A stretch of DNA of 64,000 bases from Acidimicrobiales bacterium (lineage in GTDB: Bacteria; Actinomycetota; Acidimicrobiia; Acidimicrobiales; Aldehydirespiratoraceae): assembly GCA_965116965.1 (NCBI GenBank), contig OZ220743.1:111262-175261 (forward strand), written 5' to 3'. Position 1 is the stretch's first letter; each line of letters starts with the position of its first letter. The notes beneath the pieces were generated by a model. It was not told the DNA's origin. It searched no databases and saw nothing but the letters and a program-made list of their open reading frames with translations. This document shows positions 11,313-63,458 of the stretch, in pieces. The translations under genes were made by a program, and so were the position numbers.

Positions 11313-11630
11313 GTCGGCAGGCGGGGATCGCGGCTGAACAGGCCGGTCTGGTCGAAGGTCTCGGTCAGTCGGGCGTTGGTGCGGAAGACCTCCCTACGGG
11401 TCGGGTGCACGTCCAGGAACGGGAAGTTGACGTTGGCATCCTCCGGTGCGGGCACGACGTGGCTTGCCGCCGTCGCGGTCTTGGAGCGCTGTAGTCGGTC
11501 CGGCCAGCTCGCAAGGGAGCCGGCCACGAGACGTCCTTCATGTGCGGCGGCATCACGGACCGCCCTGGCGGGGGGACTGCTCGCCAATGCCCCCCTCTGG
11601 TACGGTTCATGTATCAAACAACCGGGTAAG

Positions 11631-12491
11631 ATGTGGGTGATGGGCGCACCCCGGGCGGTCCAGCCGGCAGTTCTGGCCGATTATCTGATCGAACGCGGCG
11701 ACAGGGTCGTCACCACGGAGCAAGTGGCTGCGCTGCTGGGGGTGCGTGCGGAGCGGGTGACGCGCAGCTTGGCTGTGCCCCGGCGCGACAAGCGCATGCT
11801 GTCGGTCACCAAGGGGCTGTGGGCGCCGGTGAGCGCGGCGCGGCGCGCGGCGGGAACCAACCCGCCGGTGGAGTACATCGATGAGATGATGTCTCATCTG
11901 GGGCACCGCTACTGCCTGGGGTATCGCAGCGCCGCAGCCATGTACGGGGCCGCGCACTTCGGATGGTGGGACCTGCAGGTGATCACCACCGCCCGGCTGC
12001 GCAGCCGCCGCCTGGGCGTCTGGCCGCTGGTGTTCGTGACACGCCCCGACCTCGATCGCCTGCCCCAGCGGACCCTCGCCCGTGCGGGCGCGCCCGTGCA
12101 GGTCGCGTCGCCGGAGACGACCGTGTTCGATCTGGTCGCCCGGCCAGATCTGGCGCTGGGCCTGTCGCACACCGCGACCCTCGTCGCTGAACTGTTGACC
12201 CTCGACGCTCTCGACGGCGGCGCGCTTGTGACCGCGGCGCGTCGGCATCCCGCCGCGGTCGTGCGACGCGGCGGGATGCTCCTTGACCGGTTGCAGTCAG
12301 AGCTCGGCTGGGACATGGACAGCCCGCTGGACCTCGAGCCCCTGGCGGAACACGTCAAGGAACTGCCCCAGCGCACGGTGAGGCTCTCGGCCGGCCGGGA
12401 CTCCTGCCTGCGCGTCGGCAGCGGCGCCGAAGAACGCGTCGATTCCCGCTGGGGCGTGCTCGTCGACATGGACATCGAGTACTCGCTGTGA
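11631..12491 (+). CDS. abiEi: type IV toxin-antitoxin / abortive-infection antitoxin, AbiEi family
   Basis: N-terminal wHTH-like VVTTEQVAALLGVRAERVTRSL...VTKGLWAPV and C-terminal VASPETTVFDLVARPDLALGL. A 4-nt overlap (GTGA) joins it to the downstream AbiEii gene. The start at ATG 11631 (or 11640) was chosen because upstream residues are hydrolase stub and junk. Confidence 0.8.
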   Translation: MWVMGAPRAVQPAVLADYLIERGDRVVTTEQVAALLGVRAERVTRSLAVPRRDKRMLSVTKGLWAPVSAARRAAGTNPPVEYIDEMMSHLGHRYCLGYRSAAAMYGAAHFGWWDLQVITTARLRSRRLGVWPLVFVTRPDLDRLPQRTLARAGAPVQVASPETTVFDLVARPDLALGLSHTATLVAELLTLDALDGGALVTAARRHPAAVVRRGGMLLDRLQSELGWDMDSPLDLEPLAEHVKELPQRTVRLSAGRDSCLRVGSGAEERVDSRWGVLVDMDIEYSL

Positions 12492-20294: not shown

Positions 20295-21734
20295 TTATGG
20301 CGCGTAGGAGAACACGACGTTGCCGACGCTGGCTTCGACGTTCTCCTCGCCGCCGATGTTCTGCACGACGGTGATGCGGGCCGCGCCGCAGTCGCCGAAT
20401 CCGTCGCAGTTGATCGTGCCGATGATGCCGCTGTATCCCTGAACGCTGTTCAGGTGGTCGCGGACGCCCTGGCGGTCGATCATCAGGCTGCCGTCCTCAA
20501 GCCAGGACGCGGCCTTGACGGCATCGAGCAGCAGCGTGGTGGCGTCGTAGCTGTGGGCCCAGAACGGCGCCGCCGGGATCTCGCCGTAGCGCTCCTCGTA
20601 GACGGCCAGGAAGTCGTCGGCGGTCTTGCCGGTGCTCTGGTTGACGTTGGTGCCGAAGCGGGTGTCCGGACCGGACAGGTACATGCCCGCGGTCTGCGGC
20701 AGCGACAGATAGCTGGTGTTCAACAAGCCGTCGGCGGCCATCAGGATCGTGTCCTCCAGCCCCGGAACCCCCGGCGCCTGGTCGGCCACGAAGTCGCCGG
20801 CCGGCTGGAAGATCGGGAAGAACAGCGCAGCCGGGCTGCCTGCGGCGATCTCGGTGAGCGCCGGCACCATGTCGGTGTCCTCCTTGTTGACTGCGGTGAA
20901 GCCCGTGACCGTTCCGCCTTCGGCCTCGAAGGCGTCCGCGAATGCTTGCGCGAGCCCCTGGGTATAGGGGTCGCCGTCATGGATCGCGGCGGCAGCGCCG
21001 ATGCCCAACTCGGAGAACACGAACCTGGCCATGGCCGCGCCCTGGTACAGGTCGTTGTGAGCCGTGCGGTAGTAGCCGACGCTGTAGTTGTTCCCCGGGT
21101 TCCCGACCAGATCAGACGTCAGCGAGGGTGAGGTGTTGCTCGGGGAGATCAGCACCATTCCAGCGTCGGTGATCAGCGGGGCTGCGGCCGTGGCCGCGCC
21201 CGAGCACGACGTGCCGATCACGCCGACCACATCCTCGTCGGCGACGATGGCCTGGGCCGCGGCCTGCCCGCCGTCGGCGGAGCACAGGTCGTCGAGCCCC
21301 GTGCCCAAGTCCACGTCGAAGCCGTGGATCGAGCCGTAGTCCTCAATGGCCAGGGTGCTGGCCCGCTGGTTGGGAAGACCCAGGAAAGCGACGTCGCCGG
21401 AGATCGCCTGAAGCGAACGGATCTGGATCGCGTCACCCGCCTCGACCTCGACGACGCCCAGCGAGCCGTCACCGAGATGCTCCATCATCGCTTCTTCCTC
21501 AGCAGGAGCCTCCTCGTCGGGCTCCGGCGCCTCCTCGTCAGGAGCCTCCTCGTCGGGCTCCGGCGCCTCCTCGTCGGGCGCCTCCTCGGGCTCCGGCGCG
21601 ACCGGCTCTGCGGGCGCGGCAGGAGCGTCGTCGTCGACATCGTCGTCGCTGCAAGCCGCGGCAATGAGCGATAGCGACGCCAACACTCCAAGAGCGGCCA
21701 GCAGACGCCCGAATTTGCTGCGTCGTGGGTTCAT
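20295..21734 (-). CDS. ABC transporter substrate-binding lipoprotein, LivJ/type-I periplasmic binding protein family
   Basis: The internal ATG at 21734 gives MNPRRSKFGRLLAALGVLASLSLIAAACSDDD (signal peptide plus lipobox). An acidic EEAPDEEAPEPD repeat linker follows, then a Leu/Ile/Val-binding-like domain (VIGTSCSGAATAAAPLITDAGMVLISPSNTSP). Confidence 0.85.
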   Translation of the reverse strand: MNPRRSKFGRLLAALGVLASLSLIAAACSDDDVDDDAPAAPAEPVAPEPEEAPDEEAPEPDEEAPDEEAPEPDEEAPAEEEAMMEHLGDGSLGVVEVEAGDAIQIRSLQAISGDVAFLGLPNQRASTLAIEDYGSIHGFDVDLGTGLDDLCSADGGQAAAQAIVADEDVVGVIGTSCSGAATAAAPLITDAGMVLISPSNTSPSLTSDLVGNPGNNYSVGYYRTAHNDLYQGAAMARFVFSELGIGAAAAIHDGDPYTQGLAQAFADAFEAEGGTVTGFTAVNKEDTDMVPALTEIAAGSPAALFFPIFQPAGDFVADQAPGVPGLEDTILMAADGLLNTSYLSLPQTAGMYLSGPDTRFGTNVNQSTGKTADDFLAVYEERYGEIPAAPFWAHSYDATTLLLDAVKAASWLEDGSLMIDRQGVRDHLNSVQGYSGIIGTINCDGFGDCGAARITVVQNIGGEENVEASVGNVVFSYAP

Positions 21735-31218: not shown

Positions 31219-32481
31219 CTACCGCGCGAAGGGATCGGCGGCTCCGGAGCGGGCACTCGGAGCGAACGTCACCGGCATCGACACCACGCCGGTCATCAGA
31301 AGGTTGCCCGGGTACGGCTCGAAACCCTCGGCGTCGACCTCGTAGTCGCCGATGCGTCTGAGCACGTCGCCCAGCATCAGCTCGGACTCGATGCGGGCTA
31401 TCGACGACCCGATGCAGCGGTGGCCGCCCAGACCGAAGGCCAAGTGCTTGTTGACGGCACGGTCGATGCGCACCTCGTCGGCTCCGTCGAACACCGACGG
31501 ATCGTGATTGGCGGCCACCCAGCTGATGAACACCACATCGCCCCGGCGGATCTGGCGGCCTCCCAACTCCACGTCGCGGGTGGCAGTGCGGGTGAGCGTC
31601 TCACTGGGGCTGTAGAAGCGCAGGAACTCCTCCACCGCTCCGCCGATGAGGCCGGGATCGGCGATCAGCCGGGTCCGGTCGGCGGGATGGGTGCCGAGGT
31701 GGTGCAGGCCCCACGACACCAGCGACGTCGTCGTGTCGAGACCGCCGGCCACCAAGTTCCACATGATCCCGGTGATCTCGTCATCGGTCAGGGGCCGACC
31801 GTCGATGACCGCGGCGACCAGGGCGGAGGTCACGTCGTCCGCCGGGTTGGCTCGCCGGAAGGCGGCGAAGCCGGCTAGTTCGGCCCACATGTCGTCGCGG
31901 CGGGCCACGGCGCTCCGGAACCTGTCATCGGAGGGCTCGTAGGACGCGGTGGCGTGGAAGAAGTCGGCGTAGTGTCTCCAGTTGGACGAATCCATGCCCA
32001 TCAGCTCGAGGGTCAGCACCGCCGGCACCGGGGTGGCGTAGTCAAGGACCAGATCGGCGGCGCCGGCCTCGGTGATCTGGTCGAGGAACCAGGCCGAGAC
32101 CGCCTCCATCCTCGGTCGCCGGCACTCGATGACACGAGTGGTCATATGCGGGTTGAGCACCCGGCGCAGGTCGGCGTGCTCGGGTCCGTCGACCTCCGAC
32201 ACCCCCATGCGGGGCACATGAGGCGGCCGGGGAATGCCGCAGACGCCGTGGTAGGAGATCCCGTCGTCGGAGTCGGGCTCGTACTTGTGGGCGAAGGTGT
32301 CGTTGTCGCGGGCCACCGCGGCCACCGACTCGTAGTCGGTGACCATCCAGAAGCCCCCGTAGCGCTGGTTGAACACCACCGGGCACCGGTCCCGCAACTC
32401 GGCATATCGGCCGTGGCGATCAGCAATGAAGCTCGGGGCTTGATGGTCAACATCGATGGTGCCGTGGGGCAGGTCTTGCAT
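31219..32481 (-). CDS. cytochrome P450
   Basis: Heme-binding loop FGLGGHRCIGSSIA, the EEFLRFYSP (E-x-x-R) motif and the I-helix NLVAGGLDTT. Confidence 0.9.
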   Translation of the reverse strand: MQDLPHGTIDVDHQAPSFIADRHGRYAELRDRCPVVFNQRYGGFWMVTDYESVAAVARDNDTFAHKYEPDSDDGISYHGVCGIPRPPHVPRMGVSEVDGPEHADLRRVLNPHMTTRVIECRRPRMEAVSAWFLDQITEAGAADLVLDYATPVPAVLTLELMGMDSSNWRHYADFFHATASYEPSDDRFRSAVARRDDMWAELAGFAAFRRANPADDVTSALVAAVIDGRPLTDDEITGIMWNLVAGGLDTTTSLVSWGLHHLGTHPADRTRLIADPGLIGGAVEEFLRFYSPSETLTRTATRDVELGGRQIRRGDVVFISWVAANHDPSVFDGADEVRIDRAVNKHLAFGLGGHRCIGSSIARIESELMLGDVLRRIGDYEVDAEGFEPYPGNLLMTGVVSMPVTFAPSARSGAADPFAR

Positions 32482-32576
32482 AGGTCTGGCCGATCCCGGT
32501 GCCGCGCATCGTACCCCGGTCGAGAGTCGCAGACAGGACCGGCGAGCCCCCCAACCCGGAGGCCGAGCGGGCAGGC

Positions 32577-32815
32577 GCGCGAGTCGGGGCCCAAGCGGGC
32601 GAGGCCGTGGCCCGAGCAGCCCTCAGGTCGCGGGACGCGCGAGTCGGGGCCCAAGCGGGCGAGGCCGTACGGGCGAGCGGCCCTCAGGTCGCGGGACGCG
32701 CGAGTCGGGGCCCAAGCGGGCGAGGCCGTGGCCCGAGCAGCCCTCAGGTCGCGGGACGCGCGAGTCGGGGCCCAAGCGGGCGAGGCCGTACGGGCGAGCG
32801 GCCCTCAGGTCGCAG
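32577..32815 (+). repeat. tandem array, 4 units of 60/61 bp (two alternating variants), related to the dispersed intergenic element
   Basis: gcgcgagtcggggcccaagcgggcgaggccgtggcccgagcagccctcaggtcgcgggac alternates with a ...gtacgggcgagcggcc... variant. Unit starts are at 32577, 32637, 32698 and 32758. The last unit ends ...cgcagcgaacgagatcgggag, as in the single-copy elements. Confidence 0.9.
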
Positions 32816-33000
32816 CGAACGAGATCGGGAGACACTCCGCCGCACCGTGACTGGCTTCTGCGCGCCCGCGCGTGTTCTAGGGTGAAGACGATCCCGGAGC
32901 GGTTCTTCTTGGCGGCTTGCGCACGCCCGCGCGTGTTCTAGGGTCTTCGGCGGTGACTGACCAGCCAGAAGACCAGGCAGCCGGCCGCGCCGCACCGGCC

Positions 33001-34686
33001 ATGACGGTGGCAGAGGCCGACGCCGCCCTCACCGGCCCGGGCGGGTTCTTCGAGATCGTCACCGAGAACGTCGGCGGGATCGAGATGGGAGTGGTGGCCG
33101 GCCCGCACCAGAGCCTGCGAGACCTGCTGGCCGCCTCGGCAAACCACGGCGGCGACGGCTCGGCCCGCTACTACCTCTTCGACGACGGCCGCCGCGCCAC
33201 TTTCGCCGAGAACATCGACCACGCCGCGGCAGTGGCCGCGGCCCTCTCACAGCGCTACGGGGTGGAGCCCGGCGACCGGGTGGGCCTGCTGGGATCCAAC
33301 CAGCCGGGCTGGATCCAGGCATTCTGGGGGACGGTCAGCGCGGGAGCTGTCGCGGTGGCCATGAACGGCTGGTGGAAGGGCGACGAGATCCGCTACGGCC
33401 TCGGGCTGACCGAGCCCAAGGTGCTGATCGCCGACCGCCGGCGCCTGGAGCGCCTCCACCACGATCCAGGTGTGCCGGTGATCGCCATGGATCCTGATCC
33501 GGACGCGGCGGCAACGATCGACGGCCTGGTCGACGCCTATGCCGGCACTCCCCTTCCCGACTGTGAGATCGCCATCGACGACCCAGCCGCCATCCTGTTC
33601 ACCTCAGGCACGACGGGCAGGCCCCGGGGCGCCATCCAGACCCAGCGCAACTTCTTCGCCTATCTGACCTGCGCTTTCATGATCGGCGCCCGCCAGTTCA
33701 TGCGCTTCCCGGGCGAGACGATGGACGTCGGCGGGCCGACCCTGGCGTGCAGCCCCCTGTTCCACGTGTCCGGCCTGCACGCCTGCGCGGTGATGGCCGT
33801 CGGAGCCGGCTTCAACCATCTGTGGACCACCGGCCGCTACGACGCCGAGAAGATCTTGCGCCTCACCGAGGAGCACGGCATCGCCCGCTGGTCGGGAGTG
33901 ACCACCCAGGTCTGGCGACTGATCGAGCATCCTCGGTTGAGCGACTACGACACCTCGTCAGTCACCAGCATCGGCGGCGGCGGGTCTGTCTGGTCGCCGG
34001 AGCTGCAGGAGACATGCCGGACCGCCCTGCCCCACGCCCGCATCAGCGTCACCATCGGCTACGGGCTCACCGAGAGCTCGGGTCTGGCCACCAGCGCAGC
34101 CGACGATGTGCTGAAGGCCCATCCCGACTCGGTGGGCTACCCGCTGCCCACCGTCGGTGTGCGCATCACCGACGACGACGGCCGCGAGCTTCCCACCGGC
34201 GAGGTCGGCAACATCTGCCTGTCCGGTCCGGTGGTCACCCCCGGCTACTGGAACGACGCCGCCGCCACCGCGGAGACCATCCGCGACGGCTGGCTGCGCA
34301 CCGGCGACTACGGATACCTCCGGGACGGGCTGCTGTTCCTGGTGAGCCGGCGCAGCGACCTCATCATCCGCGGCGGCGAGAACATCTACCCCGCCGAGAT
34401 CGAGCAGCGCCTCGACGCCCACCCCGCGGTGGCCGAGTCGGCCGTGGTGGGCGTGGAGCACCGGGAGCTGGGCCAGGAGGTGAAGGCAGTCGTGGTGGTC
34501 GGCGAGGAGCCGCCCGCCGCCGACCTGATCGGAGAACTCGAGGCCTGGGTGGCCGCTACATTGGCCGACATCAAGGTTCCGGCCCACTGGGAATTGCGGA
34601 CCGGCCCGCTGCCCCGGAACGCCACCGGCAAGATCCTCAAGCAAGTCGTGCGGGGCGACGCCGACTACGACTTCATCGAGGAGTAG
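33001..34686 (+). CDS. AMP-dependent acyl-CoA synthetase/ligase
   Basis: AMP-binding motifs ILFTSGTTGRPRGA, GYGLTESSG and TGDYGYLRDGLLFLVSRRSDLIIRGGENIYPAEIE. The start is set at ATG 33001; the ORF is open from 32917. Confidence 0.85.
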   Translation: MTVAEADAALTGPGGFFEIVTENVGGIEMGVVAGPHQSLRDLLAASANHGGDGSARYYLFDDGRRATFAENIDHAAAVAAALSQRYGVEPGDRVGLLGSNQPGWIQAFWGTVSAGAVAVAMNGWWKGDEIRYGLGLTEPKVLIADRRRLERLHHDPGVPVIAMDPDPDAAATIDGLVDAYAGTPLPDCEIAIDDPAAILFTSGTTGRPRGAIQTQRNFFAYLTCAFMIGARQFMRFPGETMDVGGPTLACSPLFHVSGLHACAVMAVGAGFNHLWTTGRYDAEKILRLTEEHGIARWSGVTTQVWRLIEHPRLSDYDTSSVTSIGGGGSVWSPELQETCRTALPHARISVTIGYGLTESSGLATSAADDVLKAHPDSVGYPLPTVGVRITDDDGRELPTGEVGNICLSGPVVTPGYWNDAAATAETIRDGWLRTGDYGYLRDGLLFLVSRRSDLIIRGGENIYPAEIEQRLDAHPAVAESAVVGVEHRELGQEVKAVVVVGEEPPAADLIGELEAWVAATLADIKVPAHWELRTGPLPRNATGKILKQVVRGDADYDFIEE

Positions 34687-34723: not shown

Positions 34724-34816
34724 ATGAGCAGCTTCGCGAGGCAGACAGCGAGGCCGTGGCCCGAGCGGCCCGCGAGCGCAGCGAACAAGAGCGGGAGTGA
34801 CGCCCCATGGACATGA
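34724..34816 (+). CDS. 30-codon intercistronic mini-ORF carried by the dispersed element
   Basis: Encodes MSSFARQTARPWPERPASAANKSGSDAPWT. Its TGA (34814-34816) overlaps the second ATG (34813) of the downstream amidohydrolase as ATGA. It is homologous to the mini-ORF at 48705-48797. Confidence 0.45.
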   Translation: MSSFARQTARPWPERPASAANKSGSDAPWT

Positions 34817-37389: not shown

Positions 37390-37481
37390 CCTGCCCAGCG
37401 AATCCCAGCATAACCAGCATTATCAGTTTTTTTTTGTGATTATTGTTATATTTCAATATGCACTCTGCTAACTTGCCTGTC

Positions 37482-37841
37482 ATGGACCCGGCGATAACCG
37501 CCACCGTCATCGGCGTGCTGCTAACCGTCGCCTTCGGCGCCTTCGCTACCGCGTTCGCCTGGTTCAGGTCCGACGTGATCGCTCGCTTGGACAAGATGGA
37601 TGAGAAGTCAGACAGCCGGTTCGAGAAGATCGACGGCAGGTTCGAGAAGATCGACGGCAGGTTCGAAGAGATCGACGGCAGGTTCGAAGAGATCGACGGC
37701 AGGTTCGAGAAGATCGACGCCCGGTTCGAGAAGATCGACGCCCGGTTCGACCGGCTGGAGACGACCGTTCAGACCCTGATTGTGACGCTCGCCCAGAGAG
37801 GGCATTTGACGGACCCAGACGACTCGGGGCCCGAAGACTGA
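37482..37841 (+). CDS. small membrane-anchored coiled-coil protein with six and a half 21-bp (heptad) repeats
   Basis: MDPAITATVIGVLLTVAFGAFATAFAWFRSDV (one TM helix), then RFEKIDG x2, RFEEIDG x2, RFEKIDA x2, RFDRLET, and a C-terminal LAQRGHLTDP. It lies behind a roughly 90-bp AT-rich tract. TAACTT sits 7 nt upstream of the ATG, and I saw no Shine-Dalgarno. Confidence 0.65.
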   Translation: MDPAITATVIGVLLTVAFGAFATAFAWFRSDVIARLDKMDEKSDSRFEKIDGRFEKIDGRFEEIDGRFEEIDGRFEKIDARFEKIDARFDRLETTVQTLIVTLAQRGHLTDPDDSGPED

Positions 37842-37848
37842 AGTAGAT

Positions 37849-38025
37849 GTGATCCTTGCCGCCATCGTCATCGGCGGGCTGTACCCGGCCTCACTCGCTG
37901 CCTTCATCATTCAGTTCGTCCGGCTGCGGTCTGACATGCACGCGGGTTTCGACAGGCTCGAGACCCGCTTCGACGAACTGTTCGACCGGCTGGAGAGTCA
38001 GGTGCCGATGACTGACTCTCCGTAA
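37849..38025 (+). CDS. small membrane-anchored coiled-coil protein (58 aa, GTG start; below the ORF-track cutoff)
   Basis: My own translation: VILAAIVIGGLYPASLAAFIIQFVRLRSDMHAGFDRLETRFDELFDRLESQVPMTDSP. It has the same TM, LRSD and RLE layout as the neighbouring paralog. The 3' end overlaps the convergent LLM gene. Confidence 0.4.
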   Translation: MILAAIVIGGLYPASLAAFIIQFVRLRSDMHAGFDRLETRFDELFDRLESQVPMTDSP

Positions 38026-38909
38026 TGCTGGAGGGCCTCTAGGGAGCGGTTCAGGGAGTCGGCGGGGATGGGGGCCGCGCACCAGGTGACGCCTAGCTCG
38101 GCCAACTCCTGCAGGGCCTCCGAGTGGGCGTCGGGATTGAAGTCGTCGGCGACGGGGCTACCGCCGGCCAAGGTCATGAACGAGACGTCGATCTCTGCGG
38201 GGTCGCGACCGGCTGACTCGGCTTGACGCCATAGGTCGTCCAGCATCGCTCTCAAGTCGTCGAGTGTCTCCAGCGGGACCGTTCGGGCGGTGGTGGCCAG
38301 CCGTCGGGGGGCGGGGAACGGGACCCAACCGTCGGCGACGGTCGCGACACGCCGGCGGCTGAGGCGGCTGTTGCCTCCGATCCAGATCGGGATCGGCCGC
38401 TCCGGCTTGGGGTTGGCGGTCTGGCCCCGGGCCGTGAAGTTGCGGCCCTCGTAACTGAAGTCGTCGGTGGTCCACACGCCCCGCACGACCTCGATGGCCT
38501 CGTCGAACAGGTCGTTGCGCTCTTCGAAGTCCACTCCGAGGGCCCGGTACTCGCCCTTGAGGTAGCCGGTGCCCACGGCCAGCACGAACCGGCCGTCGGA
38601 CATAGCGTCGATGGTGGCCGCCGACTTAGCCACCAGGAACGGGTTGCGGTAGGGCAGCACCACCACGTTGGGGATCAACTGCACGCGCTCCGTGACCGCG
38701 GCCGTGAAGGCCAGCGCCGCGAAGGGATCGAGCGCGTCGTGGCCGCCGGCCGCCATCCAGCGGTGAGTCGGGGCGGGATGATCGGTGAAGCCAATCCCGT
38801 CGAAGCCGGCCTCCTCGGCCGCCCGGGCGAACTCCACGAGCCCTTGGCGCGTCGCGAACTCGGGGCTGCAGCGGCCCGCGGCCAGCGGGTACGTCACCGA
38901 GAACTTCAC
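37998..38909 (-). CDS. LLM-class F420-dependent oxidoreductase
   Basis: MKFSVTYPL..., FDGIGFTDHP, VVLPYRNPFLVAKSAATIDAMSDGRFVLAVGTGY and PIWIGGNS are luciferase-like monooxygenase family blocks. It uses a GTG start. Confidence 0.85.
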   Translation of the reverse strand: MKFSVTYPLAAGRCSPEFATRQGLVEFARAAEEAGFDGIGFTDHPAPTHRWMAAGGHDALDPFAALAFTAAVTERVQLIPNVVVLPYRNPFLVAKSAATIDAMSDGRFVLAVGTGYLKGEYRALGVDFEERNDLFDEAIEVVRGVWTTDDFSYEGRNFTARGQTANPKPERPIPIWIGGNSRLSRRRVATVADGWVPFPAPRRLATTARTVPLETLDDLRAMLDDLWRQAESAGRDPAEIDVSFMTLAGGSPVADDFNPDAHSEALQELAELGVTWCAAPIPADSLNRSLEALQHYGESVIGT

Positions 38910-39234
38910 GAACGAACCCTCCCGGCTGCCAACGCGAACCCGGCGATAGGCAAGAGCGCCACCGAGAACTTCACGAACGAACCCTCCCAGCTGCCAACGC
39001 GAACCCGGCGATAGGCAAGAGCGCCACCGAGAACTTCACGAACGAACCCTCCCAGCTGCCAACGCGAACCCGGCGATAGGCAAGAGCGCCACCGAGAACT
39101 TCACGAACGAACCCTCCCAGCTGCCAACGCGAACCCGGCGATAGGCAAGAGCGCCACCGAGAACGTCACGAACGAACTCTCCCAGCTCCCAGCTCGAACG
39201 CAACGGCAGGCACGAGCATCACCGAGAACTTCAC
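38906..39234 (-). repeat. tandem array of five 65-bp units, each a 22-codon mini-cistron (relay between the FGGY kinase stop and the LLM start)
   Basis: Unit starts (GTG) are at 39234, 39169, 39104, 39039 and 38974. Each reads GTG AAG/ACG TTC TCG GTG ... GGG AGG GTT CGT TCG TGA (MKFSVALLPIAGFALAAGRVRS). Each TGA overlaps the next GTG, and the final TGA overlaps the LLM GTG at 38909. Confidence 0.9.
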
Positions 39235-40559
39235 CGGTCGGCGCCCTCACGGAAGCGGCGGTAGCGCCCCTCGGCGCCGGCGGCGTGCCCGGCGCGGGGC
39301 TCCAACCGATGCGACACCCGGCCCCAGCGCCGGGCCTGCGACGTGTCGGCCTCCAGTCCGGCGGTGACCCGGCTGTGGTAGGCCGCACCGAGAGCGGCGC
39401 TATAGGGCTCGGCCGACACGTCCACGGCCAGGCCTGTCGTGTCGGCCAGCGCCTGCATCCAGGCCGGCGACTGGGTCCCGCCGCCGACGGCGACGATCCG
39501 CGAGGCGTCGAGACCGGAGAGCTCTACGTGGTGGCGCACCACGAAGCCGGCCGCCTCGTAGGCGGCCATCAGGACATGGGCCGATGTGTGGCCGACGTGA
39601 AGGTCGAGCAACTCGGCCCGGCGATCGGGATCGTGCAACGGGGTGCGCTCCCCTCTCGGATAGGGCAGCCACACGGGTAGGTCGTCACCGTCGAGCGCCA
39701 GCAGATCTCCAGAGTCCGGGTCGCCCACCAGAGCCCGGACCCGGTCGACGAACAGGCCGCCGGCGTTACTGGCCCCGCCCACGGCCATGATGCCGGCCCG
39801 GGCCGAGGGGAACGTCCACAACCCGTCGACCTCGACCCACTGATCGGTCATCACCCACGGCAGCAGCGTGGTTCCGCACATCACCAGCACGTCGCCGGCA
39901 TCGCCGCAGGGCGCGACGAGCTGCTCCCCCAGCACGTCGATGGTCCCGGCCGACACCAGGGCGCCGTCACGCTCGCCGATGGCGGCCGCCCCCGGGCTGA
40001 TGGCCGGGAGCTGCTCCGAGGTCATGCCGATCTCATCGAGCAACTCGGGCGCCCAGCCCTGCCCGTCGGACATCGGGGTCAGAGCCATGGCGGTGGAGGA
40101 GTCGAGGGCGGCCACGCCGCACAGGGCGCGGTTGGCCGCGGCCTGTGCCGGCCACAGAGCCTCCACCCCGTCACAGCCGGCCAACCAGCGAGCAAACCCG
40201 ACGGCCTCCCCGTCAGTGGCCTCAGTACCGGTTCCGACGCCTCGGCCGCGAGCGTCACCGTAGAGCAGACCAACGGTGACCGGCGTTCCGGCCGAGTCGA
40301 CTCCGCACATGGACGGCACCATGGCGGAGACGGTGACGGCGGCGATGGATCGATCGGCGGTGCCGGCCAGCATCTGGTCCCAGGCGCCGAGCACGCCGTC
40401 GATCCACGCGCCCTGAGGATCGTGCTCGAACTGGCCGGGATCGGTCGACACGACCCGGTGAGGGATCCGGGCCCGGGCCAGGACCGCACCGTCGCCGTCG
40501 GCGGCCACAGCCTTGACCGAGGTCGTCCCGATGTCGATCCCTACCGTCACCTCGTCCAT
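39231..40559 (-). CDS. FGGY-family carbohydrate kinase (xylulokinase-like)
   Basis: N-terminal VTVGIDIGTTSVKAVA, and C-terminal VAVGGGTQSPAWMQALADTTGLAV. Confidence 0.85.
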   Translation of the reverse strand: MDEVTVGIDIGTTSVKAVAADGDGAVLARARIPHRVVSTDPGQFEHDPQGAWIDGVLGAWDQMLAGTADRSIAAVTVSAMVPSMCGVDSAGTPVTVGLLYGDARGRGVGTGTEATDGEAVGFARWLAGCDGVEALWPAQAAANRALCGVAALDSSTAMALTPMSDGQGWAPELLDEIGMTSEQLPAISPGAAAIGERDGALVSAGTIDVLGEQLVAPCGDAGDVLVMCGTTLLPWVMTDQWVEVDGLWTFPSARAGIMAVGGASNAGGLFVDRVRALVGDPDSGDLLALDGDDLPVWLPYPRGERTPLHDPDRRAELLDLHVGHTSAHVLMAAYEAAGFVVRHHVELSGLDASRIVAVGGGTQSPAWMQALADTTGLAVDVSAEPYSAALGAAYHSRVTAGLEADTSQARRWGRVSHRLEPRAGHAAGAEGRYRRFREGADR

Positions 40560-40785
40560 ACGCCCTCCTCGCCACGGATGACTGCCACCCTTCGAACATC
40601 TCCGCGACAGTCATCTCCGCAACAGTCATCCCCGCTCCCTGACGCTACGCCACCGAAGCCACGCTTTGGTCCGATTCTTGCCGTGAAGCGGCCTCCTCAC
40701 CCCGAAGAGCCGCAAGACGGTCAACATCTCGGTCGAGTTGGCCGACAAGCCCCACGACGGGTAATGCGCTGGCTACGGTGGCGGT

Positions 40786-42247: not shown

Positions 42248-43219
42248 ATGAGTCGGCCTCGGGTGTTGGTTACCGCGCCCCTTCGGGGCCCTGCCCTCGA
42301 CGAGTTGCGCGACATCGCCGACGTGGTGTTCGAACCCTGGATCGAACACCAGCCGATCAAGCTCTACCGATCCCGAGACTTCGCGGCCAAGATCCGCCAC
42401 GAGGGAGCCGACATCGTCGTGTGCGAGGCCGACTCGTGCAAGGGTCCGGTGCTGGAGCTGCCGCTGACGGCCATCGCCTCCACCCGGGCCCGGCCCACCA
42501 ACGTCGATGTCGACGCGGCCACCGCGGCCGGCATTCCCGTGCTGCGCACACCTGGCCGCAACTCCGACGCCGTGGCCGAGATGACGGTGGCTCTGCTGAT
42601 GGCAGTGACCCGGTTCGTGGTCGCCGGCGACCGCGACGTGCGAGCGGGCACGATGTTCGGCGAGACCCTCCCCTACCAGCGCTACCGGGCCTGGCAGGTG
42701 GCGGGACGCACTGCCGGGCTGGTGGGACTGGGTGCCGTGGGTCGGGCCGCCAAGTGGCGCCTGGAGGGCCTGGGCATGACGATGATCGCCGCCGATCCCT
42801 ATGCCGCCGACGCCACCCACGGCCTCGACGACCTCCTGGCGACCGCTGACGTGGTGTCGATGCACGCCGCCGTAACGCCGGAGACGTCACAGATGATGGG
42901 CTCGGACCAGTTCGCGGCGATGAAGCCGGGGGCGATCTACCTCAACACGGCTCGGGCCGCACTGCACGACACCGACGCCCTGGTGGCCGCCCTGGAGTCG
43001 GGCCATCTGGCCGGCGCCGGCCTCGACCACTTCGAGGGCGAGATCCTGCCCACCGACCATCCCCTCACCGCCATGGACAACGTGGTGCTCACACCTCACA
43101 TCGGCGGGGCCACCTACGACGTGGAGAGCAAGCAGGCGGCCATCGTGGTGGCCGACATCAAGGCCATCCTGTCGGGCGGCAAGCCGCTCCACTGCGCCAA
43201 CCCGGAGGTCCTCGAGTGA
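42248..43219 (+). CDS. D-isomer-specific 2-hydroxyacid dehydrogenase (phosphoglycerate-dehydrogenase-like)
   Basis: NAD-binding GRTAGLVGLGAVGRAAKWRLEGLGM, catalytic region NTARAALHDTDALVAAL and TPHIGGAT. Confidence 0.85.
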   Translation: MSRPRVLVTAPLRGPALDELRDIADVVFEPWIEHQPIKLYRSRDFAAKIRHEGADIVVCEADSCKGPVLELPLTAIASTRARPTNVDVDAATAAGIPVLRTPGRNSDAVAEMTVALLMAVTRFVVAGDRDVRAGTMFGETLPYQRYRAWQVAGRTAGLVGLGAVGRAAKWRLEGLGMTMIAADPYAADATHGLDDLLATADVVSMHAAVTPETSQMMGSDQFAAMKPGAIYLNTARAALHDTDALVAALESGHLAGAGLDHFEGEILPTDHPLTAMDNVVLTPHIGGATYDVESKQAAIVVADIKAILSGGKPLHCANPEVLE

Positions 43220-43260
43220 GCATCGCTGCCAGCCATCCCAACCCGGAGGTCCTCGAGTGA
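43216..43260 (+). repeat. 41-bp duplicated gene junction forming one 14-codon relay mini-cistron
   Basis: caacccggaggtcctcgagtgagcatcg occurs at 43198 and again at 43239. GTG AGC ATC GCT GCC AGC CAT CCC AAC CCG GAG GTC CTC GAG TGA encodes MSIAASHPNPEVLE. Its GTG overlaps the dehydrogenase TGA, and its TGA overlaps the aldolase GTG at 43257. Confidence 0.85.
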
Positions 43261-43916
43261 GCATCGAAGGAGACCGTCAGGATCCTGTCCACCAGGAGGT
43301 AGCCGACGTCTCGCAGCAGATGGAGCGGGCCGGACTGGTGGTGGGCACGGCCGGCAACGTGTCGGGCCGCCGCAGCGACGGCTCGGTCTGCCTCACCCCG
43401 TCGTCCACCCCCTACCCCGACGTCACCGCCGGCAACCTCGCCGTCCTCAGCCTCGAGGGCGAGCACCTGGCCGGATCGGGCCAGCCGTCCACCGAGAAGG
43501 CCATGCACCTGGCCTGCTACAACGCCTTCGAAGAGGTCGGCGGCGTCGTCCACTGCCATCCGCCCCACGCCTCGATGTTCGCGGTGGCCCACCAGCCCAT
43601 CCCGGCCAGCATCGAGGAGGTGATCGTCTACGTGGGCGGCGACGTGCCGGTGGCCGACTACGCCACCACCGGCACCGACGAACTGGCCGCAGAGGTGGTG
43701 CGCCACCTGGCCGACCGGGGCGCGGTGCTGATGGCCAACCACGGCCTGCTGTGCGTGGGCAAGTCGCCGTCCGACGCGCTGCACACTGCCCTGGTGGTGG
43801 AGCACACCGCCAAGATCATGTTCGGGGCCCGCGTCCTGGGCGGCGTCGTATCCCTGCCCGAGAAGATCGCCAGGGACTTCGCCGGCATTTACGGCTACAT
43901 CCGCAGCACCTGGTGA
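43257..43916 (+). CDS. class II aldolase/adducin-family protein
   Basis: GTAGNVSGRR..., EKAMHLACY and HCHPPHASMFA are motifs of L-fuculose-phosphate-aldolase-like proteins. Confidence 0.85.
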   Translation: MSIEGDRQDPVHQEVADVSQQMERAGLVVGTAGNVSGRRSDGSVCLTPSSTPYPDVTAGNLAVLSLEGEHLAGSGQPSTEKAMHLACYNAFEEVGGVVHCHPPHASMFAVAHQPIPASIEEVIVYVGGDVPVADYATTGTDELAAEVVRHLADRGAVLMANHGLLCVGKSPSDALHTALVVEHTAKIMFGARVLGGVVSLPEKIARDFAGIYGYIRSTW

Positions 43917-46394: not shown

Positions 46395-46556
46395 GCGGCG
46401 CCTCTCACCCACCCAGCGAGGCCGTGGCCCGAGCGGCCCGTGAGCGAAGCGAACAACAGCGGGAAGCAACATGCTTCATCGCGACGTCGTTCGATTCATT
46501 TGCACGGACCGGATAACCGTCGAACAACAGCGGGAAGCAACACGCCTCATCGCGAC
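46395..46556 (+). repeat. copy of the dispersed intergenic element plus an internal 36-nt direct duplication
   Basis: agcgaggccgtggcccgagcggcccgtgagcgaagcgaacaacagcggga, then cgaacaacagcgggaagcaaca(t/c)gc(t/c)tcatcgcgac at 46450 and 46521. Confidence 0.8.
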
Positions 46557-47878: not shown

Positions 47879-48705
47879 CCCAGGTCGATGGGACGGATCA
47901 TGCACTCCTGGGCGAAGGAGGCGAGCAGCGCACCGCCGGCGTCGAAGGCGTGGCCCTGGCCGAAGCCCCGGGCCCGGGCCAGCGTGGGCGAGTGCTGCGT
48001 GATCAGGCACCACTGGTCGAGGCGGAACGGGCGGTGGAACCAGACGGTGTGGCTGGTCACTGCGGTGTGGAGGGTGCGGTAGGAGTCGGCCTGGCTCACG
48101 CCCTCGACCGGGAGCAGCACGGTCCCGACGATGGTGAGGTCGGTGGCGTGGGCCAGCAGCGCCTGGTGAACGGCCGGGTCGTCGCCCAACCTCCGGTCCT
48201 CGACGCGGGTCCAGAAGGCGTAGCGGGGAGGAGCCGGTGCGGGGTCCCGCAGGTCTGCGCCGCCCGTCACCCTGGTCGTCCAGGGGATCATGGACATCTC
48301 CGTCGCGGCGGCCTCGTCGGGGTGGCCCGCCTCGGGGGCGGGCTTCTGATGCTCGAAGGCCGACGCGGGCTCCAGCGCGTGCATCGAGAGCAGGGCGGCG
48401 AAGATGGTCCTGCCATGCTGGCCGGCCCGGACCCGGCGCAGCGCGAAGGTCCGTCCGGTCTGGGTCTCCTCCACCTCGAACTCGATTGGATCGGTGGTCG
48501 AACCCTCCCGCGGGAACAGGCAGCTCAACGACTTGACAACCTTGCCCTCGGTGGTGGCCGCCCCCAGCGCGACCGCTTGGGCCAGTAGCTGGCCGCCGAA
48601 GATCCGGGGATAGTCCATCTCGATGTTGGGCGCGGTCCACACGCCCGGCCGCACCGGCTCCACTTCCAGGCAGCCGAGCAGGTCGTCGATGGTGATGACC
48701 GCCAT
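47875..48705 (-). CDS. acyl-CoA thioesterase II (TesB-like, double hot-dog)
   Basis: IFGGQLLAQAV..., SLSCLFPREG... and HTVWFHRPFRLDQW are characteristic of TesB-type thioesterases. Confidence 0.85.
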   Translation of the reverse strand: MAVITIDDLLGCLEVEPVRPGVWTAPNIEMDYPRIFGGQLLAQAVALGAATTEGKVVKSLSCLFPREGSTTDPIEFEVEETQTGRTFALRRVRAGQHGRTIFAALLSMHALEPASAFEHQKPAPEAGHPDEAAATEMSMIPWTTRVTGGADLRDPAPAPPRYAFWTRVEDRRLGDDPAVHQALLAHATDLTIVGTVLLPVEGVSQADSYRTLHTAVTSHTVWFHRPFRLDQWCLITQHSPTLARARGFGQGHAFDAGGALLASFAQECMIRPIDLG

Positions 48706-48797
48706 CAGGACGTCTCGGCGGTTTCATGCCCGCTCTTGTTCGCTGCGCTCACGGGCCGCTCGGGCCACGGCCTCGCTGAGCGTCTCGCCGGGATCAC
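48705..48797 (-). CDS. 30-codon intercistronic mini-ORF carried by the dispersed element
   Basis: Its GTG (48797-48795) overlaps the DUF35 stop (GTGA). It encodes VIPARRSARPWPERPVSAANKSGHETAETS. Its TGA (48707-48705) overlaps the thioesterase ATG at 48705 (TGATG). Confidence 0.5.
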   Translation of the reverse strand: MIPARRSARPWPERPVSAANKSGHETAETS

Positions 48798-49231
48798 CGG
48801 GCGTCACCGCCCAACCGCTCGGCCTCTGCAGGACGGAACAGCGGAACGTGCCACTCGCCGCTCTCCTCGAACAGCACCTCGACCCGCATCCCGATCTCGA
48901 CCTCGTCGATGTCGCAGTCCACGATGTTGGTGCCGATCCGCACCGTCGGATCCTCGTCGAGTTCGACGAGCGCGAAGACATAGGGCGGCGTGAACCCCGG
49001 GATCCACTCCTTGCGATTGATCGTGTACGTGGCCACGGTGCCGGTTCCGGCCACCGGCTCGGGGCCGACCCGGCGCGAGTGGCAGAAGGGGCAGGCCGGG
49101 CCGGGCGGGTGGACCCAGCGGGAGCATTCGCCGCAACGCTGGATCCTGAGCCGGCCGTCGGCCCCGGAACGCCAGTAGAACTCGCTCTCGGGCGAGGCCA
49201 GCACGAACCGGGGCGGGTTGTCCGCGCTCAT
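48794..49231 (-). CDS. Zn-ribbon/OB-fold protein (DUF35), thiolase partner
   Basis: Rubredoxin-like CGECSRWVHPPGPACPFC followed by an OB-fold region. It lies immediately downstream of an SCP-x-type thiolase. Confidence 0.85.
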   Translation of the reverse strand: MSADNPPRFVLASPESEFYWRSGADGRLRIQRCGECSRWVHPPGPACPFCHSRRVGPEPVAGTGTVATYTINRKEWIPGFTPPYVFALVELDEDPTVRIGTNIVDCDIDEVEIGMRVEVLFEESGEWHVPLFRPAEAERLGGDAR

Positions 49232-49511
49232 GACGGTCCCCTGGTCAGCCGGTTGTCCGCGCTCACGACAGGCACCGAGTCAGCCGGTTGTCCGCGCTCA
49301 TGACGGTCCCCTGGTCAGCCGGTTGTCGGCGCTCACGACAGGCACCGAGTCAGCCGGTTGTCCGCGCTCATGACGGTCCCCTGGTCAGCCGGTTGTCGGC
49401 GCTCACGACAGGCACCGAGTCAGCCGGTTGTCCGCGCTCATGACGGTCCCCTGGTCAGCCGGTTGTCGGCGCTCACGACAGGCACCGAGTCAGCCGGTTG
49501 TCGGCGCTCAT
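49228..49511 (-). repeat. tandem array of eight 35-bp units (four 70-bp double units), each a 12-codon mini-cistron (relay between the thiolase stop and the DUF35 start)
   Basis: Starts at 49511, 49476, 49441, 49406, 49371, 49336, 49301 and 49266 alternate ATG and GTG. ATG AGC GCS GAC AAC CGG CTG ACT CGG TGC CTG TCG TGA encodes MSADNRLTRCLS, and GTG AGC GCC GAC AAC CGG CTG ACC AGG GGA CCG TCA TGA encodes SADNRLTRGPS. Every stop overlaps the next start, and the last overlaps the DUF35 ATG at 49231. Confidence 0.9.
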
Positions 49512-50686
49512 GACGGTCCCCTGGTCAGCAGCAGGCATCCGGTCTCGGGGCCGCCGCCGGCTCCGACCGCGACCACCTCGCAGCCGGGGACCTGGACGTT
49601 GGCTGTGCCCCGCAACTGCATCACTGCCTCGTGAAGGTGGCCGAAGCCGTGCAGCCGGCCCGCGGAGAGCTGGCCGCCGGACGTGTTGAGCGGCGCCGGG
49701 CCGTCGGGGCCGATGTTGGCGCCGCCCTCCACGAAGGCCCCGCTCTCCCCCTTGCCGCAGAAGCCCATGGCCTCGATCCAGGCCAGGGTCAACCAGCTGA
49801 AGCCGTCGTACAGCTGAGCGGTGTCCACGTCGTCGACCGTCAGCTCGGTGCGCTCCCACATCGAGGCGGCGGTGTGGCGCATCATCATCGACGTCAGGTC
49901 GTCGAACTGGTCCCAGGAGGGCCGGCCCCGGATGGCGGTCCCCATGGCGTTGACGCCGACCGCGCCCGCCGGGGCGTCGGGTGAGTGGTCGCGGTGCGAG
50001 ACCACCACCGCGGTGGACCCGTCGCAGGGAACATCACAGTCGTAGAGGCACAGCGGGTCGCTGATCATCCGCACGGCCAGGTAGTCGTCGATGGTCATGG
50101 GATCGGTGTAGACGGCCTGGGGGTTGGCCGCCGCGTTGGCCCGCCCGTTGATCGCAATGGCGCCGAGCTGCGTGCGGGTGGTGCCGTAGTCGTGCATGTG
50201 GCGGCGGGCGTAGCAGGCGACCCAGCAGGCGGCCGACGCCGCTCCGTAGGGGATCATGAACTGGAACGGACCGGCCGAGCCGGCCATCGGGCCGCCCCCA
50301 CCGCCGCCGCCGGGGCGCAACGGCCCTCCGCTGCCCTCCACCACGGTGCGGAACACCAGCACGTGGCGAGCCAGGCCGGTCGCCACCGCCAGGATGGCGT
50401 TGTGGACCGCGCCCAGCGGGCCGGCAGTCTCCACGCCCGAGCTGCGCCAGTTGAGCGCCAACCGCAGCGCCTCGTGCAGTTCAGCCCCCATGGCCCCTCC
50501 GAAGGAGCCGCCGAAGCCCGGATAGGTGGACACCCCGTCGATGTCGGCCGTCGTCAGCCCGGCGTCGGCGACCGCCCGGAGTGCGGCCTCGACGGTGAGG
50601 TCGATGCCGGTGCGGTACAGCCGGCGGCCGATCTCAGACTGGGCCGCGCCGCTGATAACGGCCCGCCGCTCCCGAGGCTCACCCAT
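49508..50686 (-). CDS. thiolase-like lipid-transfer (SCP-x-type) protein
   Basis: 392 aa with a thiolase-superfamily fold pattern (VISGAAQSEIGR..., GVSTYPG..., CDVPCDGSTAVVV, GGQLSAGRLHGFGHLHEAVMQLRG). It is paired with a DUF35 gene. Confidence 0.8.
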   Translation of the reverse strand: MGEPRERRAVISGAAQSEIGRRLYRTGIDLTVEAALRAVADAGLTTADIDGVSTYPGFGGSFGGAMGAELHEALRLALNWRSSGVETAGPLGAVHNAILAVATGLARHVLVFRTVVEGSGGPLRPGGGGGGGPMAGSAGPFQFMIPYGAASAACWVACYARRHMHDYGTTRTQLGAIAINGRANAAANPQAVYTDPMTIDDYLAVRMISDPLCLYDCDVPCDGSTAVVVSHRDHSPDAPAGAVGVNAMGTAIRGRPSWDQFDDLTSMMMRHTAASMWERTELTVDDVDTAQLYDGFSWLTLAWIEAMGFCGKGESGAFVEGGANIGPDGPAPLNTSGGQLSAGRLHGFGHLHEAVMQLRGTANVQVPGCEVVAVGAGGGPETGCLLLTRGPS

Positions 50687-62960: not shown

Positions 62961-63458
62961 GTGGACGCGATCACGCTCACGGACCTCTTGGCAGTCGTAG
63001 CCGCTGTCCTCGGCCCGACGCTGGCCGCCGTCTTGGCTTTGGCCCGTTACCAGCACAAGGACAGCATCGAGACCCACCGATTGATCGCAGAGGCCAGAGA
63101 CGAGTTCCGCACCGGGATCGCAGAGGCCAGAGACGAGTTCCGCACCGGGATCGCAGAGGCCAGAGACGAGTTCCGCACCGGGATCGCAGAGGCCAGAGAC
63201 GAGTTCCGCACCGGGATCGCAGAGGCCAGAGACGAAACCCGCCAACTGTTCGACAAGGCCGTCGACGAAACCCGCAACCTGTTCGGAGAGGCCAGGGACG
63301 AGAACCGCGAGCACCGCCGCGAGAACGGTGAGATCCTCAAGGAAGTGATCCGGAGCCTCGCCGACGCCCGCGAGAGGCTGGCGCGCATCGAGGGACACTT
63401 CGGCATCGGGGGGAGTCCGAGAGACGAGGATGGTCGAGGCACGGCTGACGCCGCCTGA
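62961..63458 (+). CDS. membrane-anchored coiled-coil protein with four and a half 33-bp (11-residue) repeats
   Basis: The GTG start gives VDAITLTDLLAVVAAVLGPTLAAVLALA (TM), then IAEARDEFRTG x4, IAEARDETRQLF..., and RERLARIEGHFGIGG. The start was chosen by analogy with the MDPAI... N-termini of the paralogs and by the promoter spacing. Confidence 0.55.
   Translation: MDAITLTDLLAVVAAVLGPTLAAVLALARYQHKDSIETHRLIAEARDEFRTGIAEARDEFRTGIAEARDEFRTGIAEARDEFRTGIAEARDETRQLFDKAVDETRNLFGEARDENREHRRENGEILKEVIRSLADARERLARIEGHFGIGGSPRDEDGRGTADAA

Follow-up and report, generated by a model that had tools for sequence, protein, structure and literature searches.

A tandem mini-cistron repeat, probably locally derived and translationally coupled, at a kinase/monooxygenase gene junction of an Acidimicrobiales bacterium

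Introduction

Mycobacterial interspersed repetitive units (MIRUs; Supply et al. 1997, Mol Microbiol 26:991, as summarised in PMC12548453, PMC3184786, PMC4213456 and PMC2453075) are intercistronic tandem units of 40–100 bp, which contain small open reading frames (ORFs) overlapping the ends of their neighbours at a spacing of −4, and which are reported to insert at start codons (PMC12548453, PMC3184786). The senX3-regX3 units are 77 and 53 bp long and are present in 1–7 copies across the complex (ETR-D/MIRU04; PMC4213456, PMC2453075). Translational coupling is efficient at spacings of −4 to +3 nt, and the Shine–Dalgarno motif plays a part in it (PMC12548453). Here we describe an array of the same design in a 64,000-nucleotide stretch of DNA from an Acidimicrobiales bacterium (assembly GCA_965116965.1, contig OZ220743.1, positions 111,262 to 175,261), referred to below as the window. 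The array lies on the minus strand between the genes for an FGGY-family carbohydrate kinase (FGGY) and a luciferase-like monooxygenase (LLM). An earlier note on this DNA had described it as an overlapping GTGA junction that was expanded into five mini-cistrons of 22 codons. A literature search found no report of such arrays outside mycobacteria, nor any in this clade.

We propose that the array is probably a mini-cistron repeat of local origin, coupled in translation and varying in copy number from one related species to another. It resembles MIRUs in consisting of tandem units of 40–100 bp between co-oriented genes of an operon (here five 65-bp units), and in having a small ORF in each unit, with a start and a stop that overlap the neighbours at −4 (here through six GTGA overlaps). 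In both cases the units are flanked by tetranucleotide direct repeats, and the unit length leaves a remainder of two on division by three (2 mod 3), as do 77, 53 and 65. The copy number of MIRUs varies between strains; at the junction described here it is 0, 1, 2, 3 or 5 in related species. MIRUs differ in forming one sequence family at ~40–50 loci and are thought to be mobile, whereas the units described here are junction-specific, appear to come from their own flanking genes, and have no second locus in a sample of ~1.5 Mb. The hosts also differ: MIRUs are found in Mycobacterium (the M. tuberculosis complex and M. leprae), and the present array in a clade of Acidimicrobiia metagenome-assembled genomes (MAGs) with FGGY identity of up to 93%. 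The array works like a MIRU array but is outside the MIRU family, from which it is set apart by dispersal and host, and not by a comparison of consensus sequences. The design is known from MIRUs; what appears to be new here is a local, non-dispersed version that seems to be derived from the junction itself.

The individual links are those of −4 (NTGA) coupled gene pairs. All six are canonical, with the Shine–Dalgarno motif inside the upstream ORF, and the ancestral junction described below is exactly such a pair. In the array, however, the link is repeated serially through apparently non-functional mini-ORFs, instead of joining two protein genes directly. A similar arrangement is used in bicistronic design cassettes (PMC12548453, ref 78), in which a short leader ORF carries the Shine–Dalgarno motif of the downstream gene, and its stop overlaps the downstream start, thus delivering a translating ribosome. 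Unlike these cassettes, the array is natural and serial, and was probably generated by duplication.

Organization of the FGGY/LLM array

Tandem Repeats Finder identified positions 38895–39234 as a tandem array of period 65, with 5.2 copies, 94% matches and a score of 582. The flanking genes were taken from the list of ORFs, and the identities proposed for them earlier were borne out by Pfam. The upstream gene FGGY (39231–40559, minus strand, 442 aa) matched FGGY_C (E 2.2e-22) and FGGY_N (E 1.8e-12), and the downstream gene LLM (37998–38909, minus strand, 303 aa) matched Bac_luciferase (E 5e-51). The LLM start, MKFSVTYPLAAGR, is kept in relatives, with tblastn alignments beginning at residue 1 in at least 30 loci.

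FGGY ends ...GAC CGG TGA, and its TGA stop (39231–39233) overlaps the GTG of unit 1 at 39234. The array contains five 22-codon ORFs on the minus strand, starting at 39234, 39169, 39104, 39039 and 38974, and the TGA of each overlaps the GTG of the next. The TGA of unit 5 overlaps the GTG of LLM at 38909, making six consecutive GTGA overlaps in total. Mini-cistron 1 (39166–39234, unit 39170–39234) encodes the peptide VKFSVMLVPAVAFELGAGRVRS, and mini-cistron 2 (39101–39169, unit 39105–39169) encodes VTFSVALLPIAGFALAAGRVRS. Mini-cistrons 3 (39036–39104, unit 39040–39104), 4 (38971–39039, unit 38975–39039) and 5 (38906–38974, unit 38910–38974) all encode VKFSVALLPIAGFALAAGRVRS. The coordinates, overlaps and peptides agree with the earlier description, which is also supported by relatives carrying zero to three units. 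No single frame is open across the whole of 38895–39234 on either strand, and the array is therefore not an in-frame coding repeat of a protein.

Units 2–5 differ from each other by 0–2 bases, while unit 1, an older and diverged copy, differs from them by 12–13. The earlier note had put the differences among the inner units at only 1–2 bases; their near-identity stands, units 3 and 4 being exactly identical. A Shine–Dalgarno motif had been placed 8 nt before the next start in every unit. We found GGGAGG at this spacing in unit 2 (39113–39118), unit 3 (39048–39053), unit 4 (38983–38988) and unit 5 (38918–38923, which is the Shine–Dalgarno motif of LLM itself), whereas unit 1 has GGGAGA (39178–39183). 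The first GTG is preceded by a Shine–Dalgarno-like GAGGG inside the 3′ end of FGGY (39244–39248, minus strand), located 9 nt upstream by a motif scan of the sequence. The first 15 nt of LLM, said to open each unit, are present in full in units 1, 3, 4 and 5, and at 14/15 positions in unit 2. The count of five units comes from one assembly of the window, in which units 3 and 4 cannot be told apart.

GTGA occurs twice in frame, at a distance of 12 nt, in the 5′ end of LLM (38894–38909; GTGAAGTTCTCGGTGACG). The second GTGA is used as the stop–start overlap in two related loci, L009 and L036, and its use as a junction explains the 62- versus 50-bp unit variants described below.

Distribution in related genomes

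Searching species-representative genomes with the FGGY protein yielded 78 loci, and a metagenome scan added a further 38. Each locus was walked from the FGGY stop, via every overlapping start, to the LLM start. The closest loci (75–93% FGGY identity) belong to Acidimicrobiia MAGs, many of them labelled 'Candidatus Aldehydirespirator' and several being single-contig chromosomes. Loci L009, L010, L012, L017–L019 and L024 are on large contigs or whole chromosomes.

The two genes overlap directly through NTGA in 9/9 distant relatives that have the gene pair (L026, L027, L029, L035, L082, L083, L085, L086 and L105; 57–60% FGGY identity), and in 12 loci of the close clade (L004–L008, L014–L016, L022, L023, L079 and L081). 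The occurrence of the direct overlap in both groups indicates that it is the ancestral state of the FGGY/LLM junction.

Extra sequence is present at this junction in 13 other clade loci, and forms a perfect relay in 13/13. The units in these loci have NTGA at both ends and a length of 2 mod 3, and the chain ends at the LLM start, or in L036 at the second, in-frame GTGA of LLM. Loci L001–L003, L010 and L020 contain one 65-bp unit, L018 and L036 one of 62 bp, L024 one of 50 bp, and L019 one of 44 bp. Two units are present in L009 (50 + 62 bp) and L011 (44 + 65 bp), and three 62-bp units in L012, which is on the single-contig chromosome OZ244832.1. Locus L017 (chromosome OZ252146.1) has a single 179-bp unit at 11407–11589 with four internal in-frame 39-bp repeats. 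With the window included, the related species thus have 0, 1, 2, 3 or 5 units at the FGGY/LLM junction.

The units of 65, 62 and 50 bp can be aligned with one another and with the ends of the 179-bp unit, forming a single family whose lengths differ by multiples of 3. Members of this family have an LLM-like 5′ part, followed by a 3′ block ...GCCGGGAGGGTTCG..NTGA. A second family seems to be represented by the 44-bp units of L019 and L011. By blastn, L001 and L002 have a single unit with 95.7% identity to the inner units of the window, which suggests that the lineage of the window amplified a pre-existing unit. Together with the 0–2 base differences among units 2–5, this supports the recent amplification that had been proposed from the window.

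Searches for alleles of the same strain or species, by exact-protein look-up of LLM, the ORF 43257–43916 and DUF35, found none, and a metagenome scan for further alleles returned only zero-unit relatives. Bacterial variable-number tandem repeats and contingency loci likewise consist of near-identical tandem units, the number of which varies among close lineages, most probably by slippage. Classic contingency repeats switch genes by shifting the frame or the promoter spacing, whereas in the present array every copy number preserves the frame relation.

Two of the related loci have additional features at this junction. Within the mini-ORF of the 179-bp unit in L017, the 39-bp segment TCLWALGGPRVAT is present as four in-frame repeats, making a repeat nested in a relay unit. 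Locus L013 is the sole exception in the clade, with a 610-bp insertion (11405–12013) that contains ORFs of 52 and 132 codons chained by GTGA overlaps, followed by a non-overlapping spacer before LLM. The 132-codon ORF contains 33-bp repeats, QEFQRGQRSLRKE.

Relays at two other junctions

The window contains two other relays of the same design. Relay 2 (49232–49511, minus strand) consists of eight 35-bp units with 12-codon mini-cistrons, and is located between a thiolase-like gene (49508–50686) and a ChsH2/DUF35-like gene (48794–49231). Its peptides alternate between MSADNRLTRCLS and VSADNRLTRGPS, and its joints are GTGA and ATGA overlaps. Each unit is composed of the first 16 nt of the downstream gene, which starts MSADNPPRF, and the last 19 nt of the upstream gene, which ends ...LTRGPS. 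The units form a 70-bp dimer that is repeated with 99% identity, and a Shine–Dalgarno-like AGGGGA is present in alternate units only.

Relay 3 (43217–43261, plus strand) is a single 41-bp unit with a 14-codon mini-cistron, VSIAASHPNPEVLE, between the ORFs 42248–43219 and 43257–43916, which from their appearance we take to be dehydrogenase-like (DH) and aldolase-like, respectively. It has GTGA overlaps at both ends. The upstream ORF ends ...HCANPEVLE and the downstream ORF starts VSIEGDR, and the unit is again a downstream start joined to an upstream end.

Both junctions vary among relatives. The thiolase/DUF35 junction contains two 44-bp units in L017 (chromosome OZ252146.1), where the peptide MTT+ETGCLLLTRGPS is that of a plain junction duplication, one 47-bp unit in six loci, and one 20-bp unit in L022. 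It is without units in 12 clade loci and in 6/6 distant relatives. The DH/aldolase junction contains one 41-bp unit, 80 + 7 × 59 bp (L012), 83 + 3 × 47 bp (L013), 137 + 5 × 47 bp (L017), 68 + 47 bp, or 86 bp, and is without units in 15 clade loci and ~20 distant relatives.

Origin of the units

The units at the thiolase/DUF35 and DH/aldolase junctions (35, 44, 47, 20, 41, 59 and 86 bp) are chimeras of the 5′ end of the downstream gene and the 3′ end of the upstream gene. Judged by the identity of sequence or peptide with both flanking genes, junction duplication is unambiguous for the 35-, 41- and 44-bp units at these junctions, and the chimeric peptides make it evident for the 47- and 59-bp units.

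The 65-bp family can be traced in part. The first 30 nt of its units match the 5′ end of LLM in their own genome at 17–25 positions. Local alignments of the 3′ half with the 3′ end of FGGY were mostly no better than those of shuffled sequences, with only CGGGAGGG in common. The claim that the array arose by repeated duplication of the original junction is therefore supported for the LLM-like 5′ half of the unit, and not for the 3′ half, which could not be traced to FGGY. The 3′ half may either have diverged beyond recognition, or have an origin other than simple duplication. Divergence beyond recognition is plausible because the ratio of nonsynonymous to synonymous substitution rates (dN/dS) of the mini-ORFs is ~1.

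A blastn search of the window and the 78 related loci (~1.5 Mb) found no 65-bp unit outside the orthologous FGGY/LLM junction, and a search of the window and related loci found no 35-bp unit outside its own junction. Since each unit is placed at its own junction only in this sample of the genome and its relatives, a dispersed or mobile nature of the 65- or 35-bp unit was rejected.

Unit length and Shine–Dalgarno motifs

The earlier note had pointed out that the unit length of 65 equals 69 minus 4, as needed for every stop to overlap the next start. The same relation, a unit length of 3n − 4 (2 mod 3), holds for every unit at all three junctions, and a check of related loci for unit lengths that break the frame revealed none. 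There are at least eight separately derived unit types over the three junctions, all of them 2 mod 3; given a chance of 1/3 for each, our own arithmetic puts the probability of this outcome at ~1.5e-4, a figure computed before counting the in-frame length variants. That such variants differ by multiples of 3 is as would be expected under selection for frame.

Other tandem arrays in the same loci were examined for comparison. Those that lie outside ORFs and form no relay have periods of 73, 73, 67, 28, 60, 72 and 66 bp, and those inside ORFs have periods of 0 mod 3. Because the non-relay, non-ORF arrays have periods of any residue, the 2 mod 3 rule points to a filter specific to the junctions and not to a mutational bias. 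A 74-bp array in L012 (4729–5055) has a relay-like period, but links no two genes and was left uncounted.

A Shine–Dalgarno-like motif (at least 4/5 matches to GGAGG, 4–12 nt upstream) is present at 34/34 relay links of the FGGY/LLM junction across species, 20 of them perfect. In the same FGGY genes, 18% of control NTG triplets have a match of at least 4/5 to GGAGG, and 1.9% a perfect one.

Peptides and RNA structure

Comparison of the mini-ORFs of the window with orthologous units gave dN/dS values of 0.78 (L001), 2.9 (L003), 1.7 (L011), 0.98 (L010) and 1.6 (L020), based on 3–25 substitutions, as against 0.13–0.28 for LLM and FGGY in the same pairs of loci. The mini-peptides of other species are unrelated in character, for example MRGSMTCERAPSEPRVGRVRG in L018. 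The mini-peptides therefore appear to be unconstrained, while the frame, start, stop and Shine–Dalgarno motif appear to be kept.

The RNA of the array folds no better than shuffled sequences, with a minimum free energy of −159.7 versus −167.3 ± 5.9 (z +1.27), and neither do single units of 65 bp (z +1.08) or 35 bp (z −0.46). An RNA-structure element was ruled out on these grounds. The array shares with REP/BIME and MITE-like repeats its position as a short repeat between operon genes, but differs from them in having no palindrome or stable hairpin, and in not being dispersed. A scan of 37900–40700 found no promoter-like or terminator-like consensus site, although an actinobacterial promoter with only a −10 element could escape such a scan. 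A search of the whole window against Rfam gave no match at gathering thresholds.

Other repeats in the window

A dispersed element of ~50 bp with the core CAGCGAGGCCGTGGCCCGAGCGGCCCGTGAGCGCAGCGAACAAGAGCGGG is present in the window at 48729–48778 (minus strand), 34746–34795 (plus strand) and 46414–46463 (plus strand), with degenerate pieces in 32576–32813. It has many copies in relatives (L007, L013, L017, L018, L020, L028 and others), which are sometimes in tandem (41 bp × 6.8 in L018). At 48705–48797 the element lies within a 30-codon mini-ORF that is GTGA-coupled to the stop of DUF35 and joined by TGATG to the next gene, and at 34724–34816 within a 30-codon ORF that ends in ATGA on a 422-aa ORF. 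The element showed no significant hairpin (z −1.4 to +0.3). It has no sequence relationship to the 65-bp unit, but comes closer than that unit does to the 'interspersed' property of MIRUs.

Positions 32576–32813 contain a tandem array of 60 or 121 bp (3.9 or 2.0 copies, with 100% repetition at the 121-bp period) in a divergent intergenic region, without a relay. It is flanked by the ORFs 31219–32481 (minus strand) and 32917–34686 (plus strand), which we presume from their appearance to encode a P450-like protein and an acyl-CoA synthetase-like protein, and has a short piece in common with the CAGCGAGGCCGTGGCCCGAGCGGCCCGTGAGCGCAGCGAACAAGAGCGGG element. The ORF 37443–37841 (plus strand), convergent with LLM, contains at 37602–37750 an in-frame 21-bp repeat in 7 copies, which encodes (F/I)EKIDGR heptads. 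This ORF has a weak, sub-threshold Pfam match to the coiled-coil family DUF7310 (E 1.8e-4). A relationship to the 132-aa ORF of L013 was considered, but is unsupported, as BLASTP showed no similarity.

Repeats inside long open frames, all with periods divisible by 3, were also found at 63083–63306 (33 bp × 4.6, 100% identity, extending as 66- and 99-bp periods) and at 21496–21599 (36 bp × 3.0). The genome is generally rich in minisatellites.

Discussion

The observations suggest the following course of events. In the ancestor, the FGGY stop and the LLM start overlapped in NTGA. A short segment beginning with the LLM start region would have been inserted at the junction as a tandem copy and, given a length of 3n − 4, the copied start would open a mini-ORF whose TGA comes to lie precisely at the following start. 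The copy number may then have changed by slippage or unequal recombination; in the lineage of the window, amplification of the unit next to LLM may have produced the four near-identical copies, with one older copy remaining. Ribosomes that complete FGGY would terminate and reinitiate at each GTGA, aided by the Shine–Dalgarno motifs of the units, through to LLM. The peptides would be by-products, with selection acting on the frame, start, stop and Shine–Dalgarno motif. Such arrays could persist through a geometry that neither fuses additional sequence to LLM nor sends out-of-frame ribosomes over its start. That only 3n − 4 units are seen would be explained by the consequences of other lengths, because units of 0 mod 3 would extend the N-terminus of LLM, and units of 1 mod 3 would send out-of-frame ribosomes across the start. 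From these features we infer translation of the mini-ORFs and reinitiation, and the copy number might in addition affect LLM output.

Several points weigh against this account. The 3′ half of the 65-bp unit is untraceable to the end of FGGY, which leaves an origin of this family by simple junction duplication unproven. The single-unit states of L001–L003 and L036 come from short-read assemblies, where arrays could have collapsed; contigs of this kind would merge or break at 325 bp of near-identical repeats, making their copy numbers unreliable. The dN/dS values of the mini-ORFs draw on few substitutions. Translation and reinitiation are deduced entirely from constraints on the sequence. With a strong Shine–Dalgarno motif in each unit, LLM could also initiate de novo, independently of the relay.

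The last point is shared by the view that the array is a neutral, untranslated intergenic repeat, with LLM using its own strong Shine–Dalgarno motif alone and the overlaps being passively inherited. Any duplication that includes the GTGA copies both a start and a stop, and the mini-peptides are unconstrained, as this view would predict. Only one third of random lengths would give a relay, however, yet all units of the eight or more types at three junctions comply, and length variants of relay units differ by multiples of 3. A Shine–Dalgarno motif is also kept at all 34 links, and the non-relay, non-ORF arrays have no such bias in length. We consider a neutral repeat quite unlikely. Insertion of a mobile element of the MIRU type into the LLM start codon, with GTGA as the target-site duplication and the array as a member of a dispersed family, would agree with the description of MIRUs as mobile elements that insert at start codons, with −4 coupling and tetranucleotide direct repeats (PMC12548453, PMC3184786). 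Another element in the window, that of ~50 bp, is truly dispersed and sometimes lies inside coupled mini-ORFs. This explanation is made very unlikely by the confinement of the 65-bp unit to one junction in the window and ~1.5 Mb of related loci, by the resemblance of its first 30 nt to the LLM of its own genome, and by the presence at other junctions of different units made from their own flanking genes. It is highly improbable that the assembler produced the array or exaggerated its copy number. In favour of such an artefact, unit 3 has the same sequence as unit 4, and a search for a second assembly of the strain found none; private substitutions in units 1, 2 and 5 nevertheless anchor the array, a unit occupies the same junction in 13 independent assemblies, and multi-copy relays are present in the single-contig chromosomes of L012 and L017.

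The two other explanations ascribe a function to the products or to their number. The 22-residue peptides of the window contain a hydrophobic stretch followed by a basic tail (MKFSVALLPIAGFALAAGRVRS), and could be functional small membrane proteins, with the array raising their dosage. Given the dN/dS of ~1, the unrelated, non-hydrophobic peptides of relatives such as L018 or the absence of units there, and the chimeric nature of the peptides at other junctions, we regard this as the least probable explanation of all. Alternatively, the array could be an adaptive rheostat, in which each reinitiation step passes on part of the ribosomes, so that the LLM:FGGY ratio would depend on how many units there are and could evolve quickly via slippage. 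The copy number does differ among close species at three junctions. The thiolase and DUF35 proteins may form a complex in which stoichiometry matters, which would favour such a role. How efficient coupling is varies with context and spacing (PMC12548453). The patchy presence and absence of units would equally fit neutral gain and loss, however, and a dose effect could be levelled out if initiation were reset by the Shine–Dalgarno motif of each unit. An adaptive rheostat is therefore unlikely in our view, and the locally derived, translationally coupled repeat set out above remains our preferred reading.

The MIRU design, in which −4 overlaps link a series of mini-ORFs between operon genes, is found outside mycobacteria as well. 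On our reading it can arise de novo from a gene junction, with intermediates of 0, 1, 2, 3, 5 and 8 units preserved in related genomes, and these junctions provide a testable model for the origin of MIRUs. Such arrays also call for care in annotation, as gene callers will mislabel them as intergenic spacers or spurious small genes. Their variability would make them hypervariable markers for the typing of uncultured sponge symbionts, and the different unit numbers provide a natural series for measuring the efficiency of ribosome reinitiation through successive stop–start overlaps.

For the biology of the clade, a broader interpretation is possible, though we offer it tentatively and with considerable doubt. 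This sponge-associated group of Acidimicrobiia may repeatedly turn overlapping gene junctions into mini-cistron repeats of variable copy number, with the copy number acting as a heritable, rapidly adjustable dial on the protein ratios of operons, and local duplication filtered for lengths of 3n − 4 could be how MIRU-type elements originate before they disperse.

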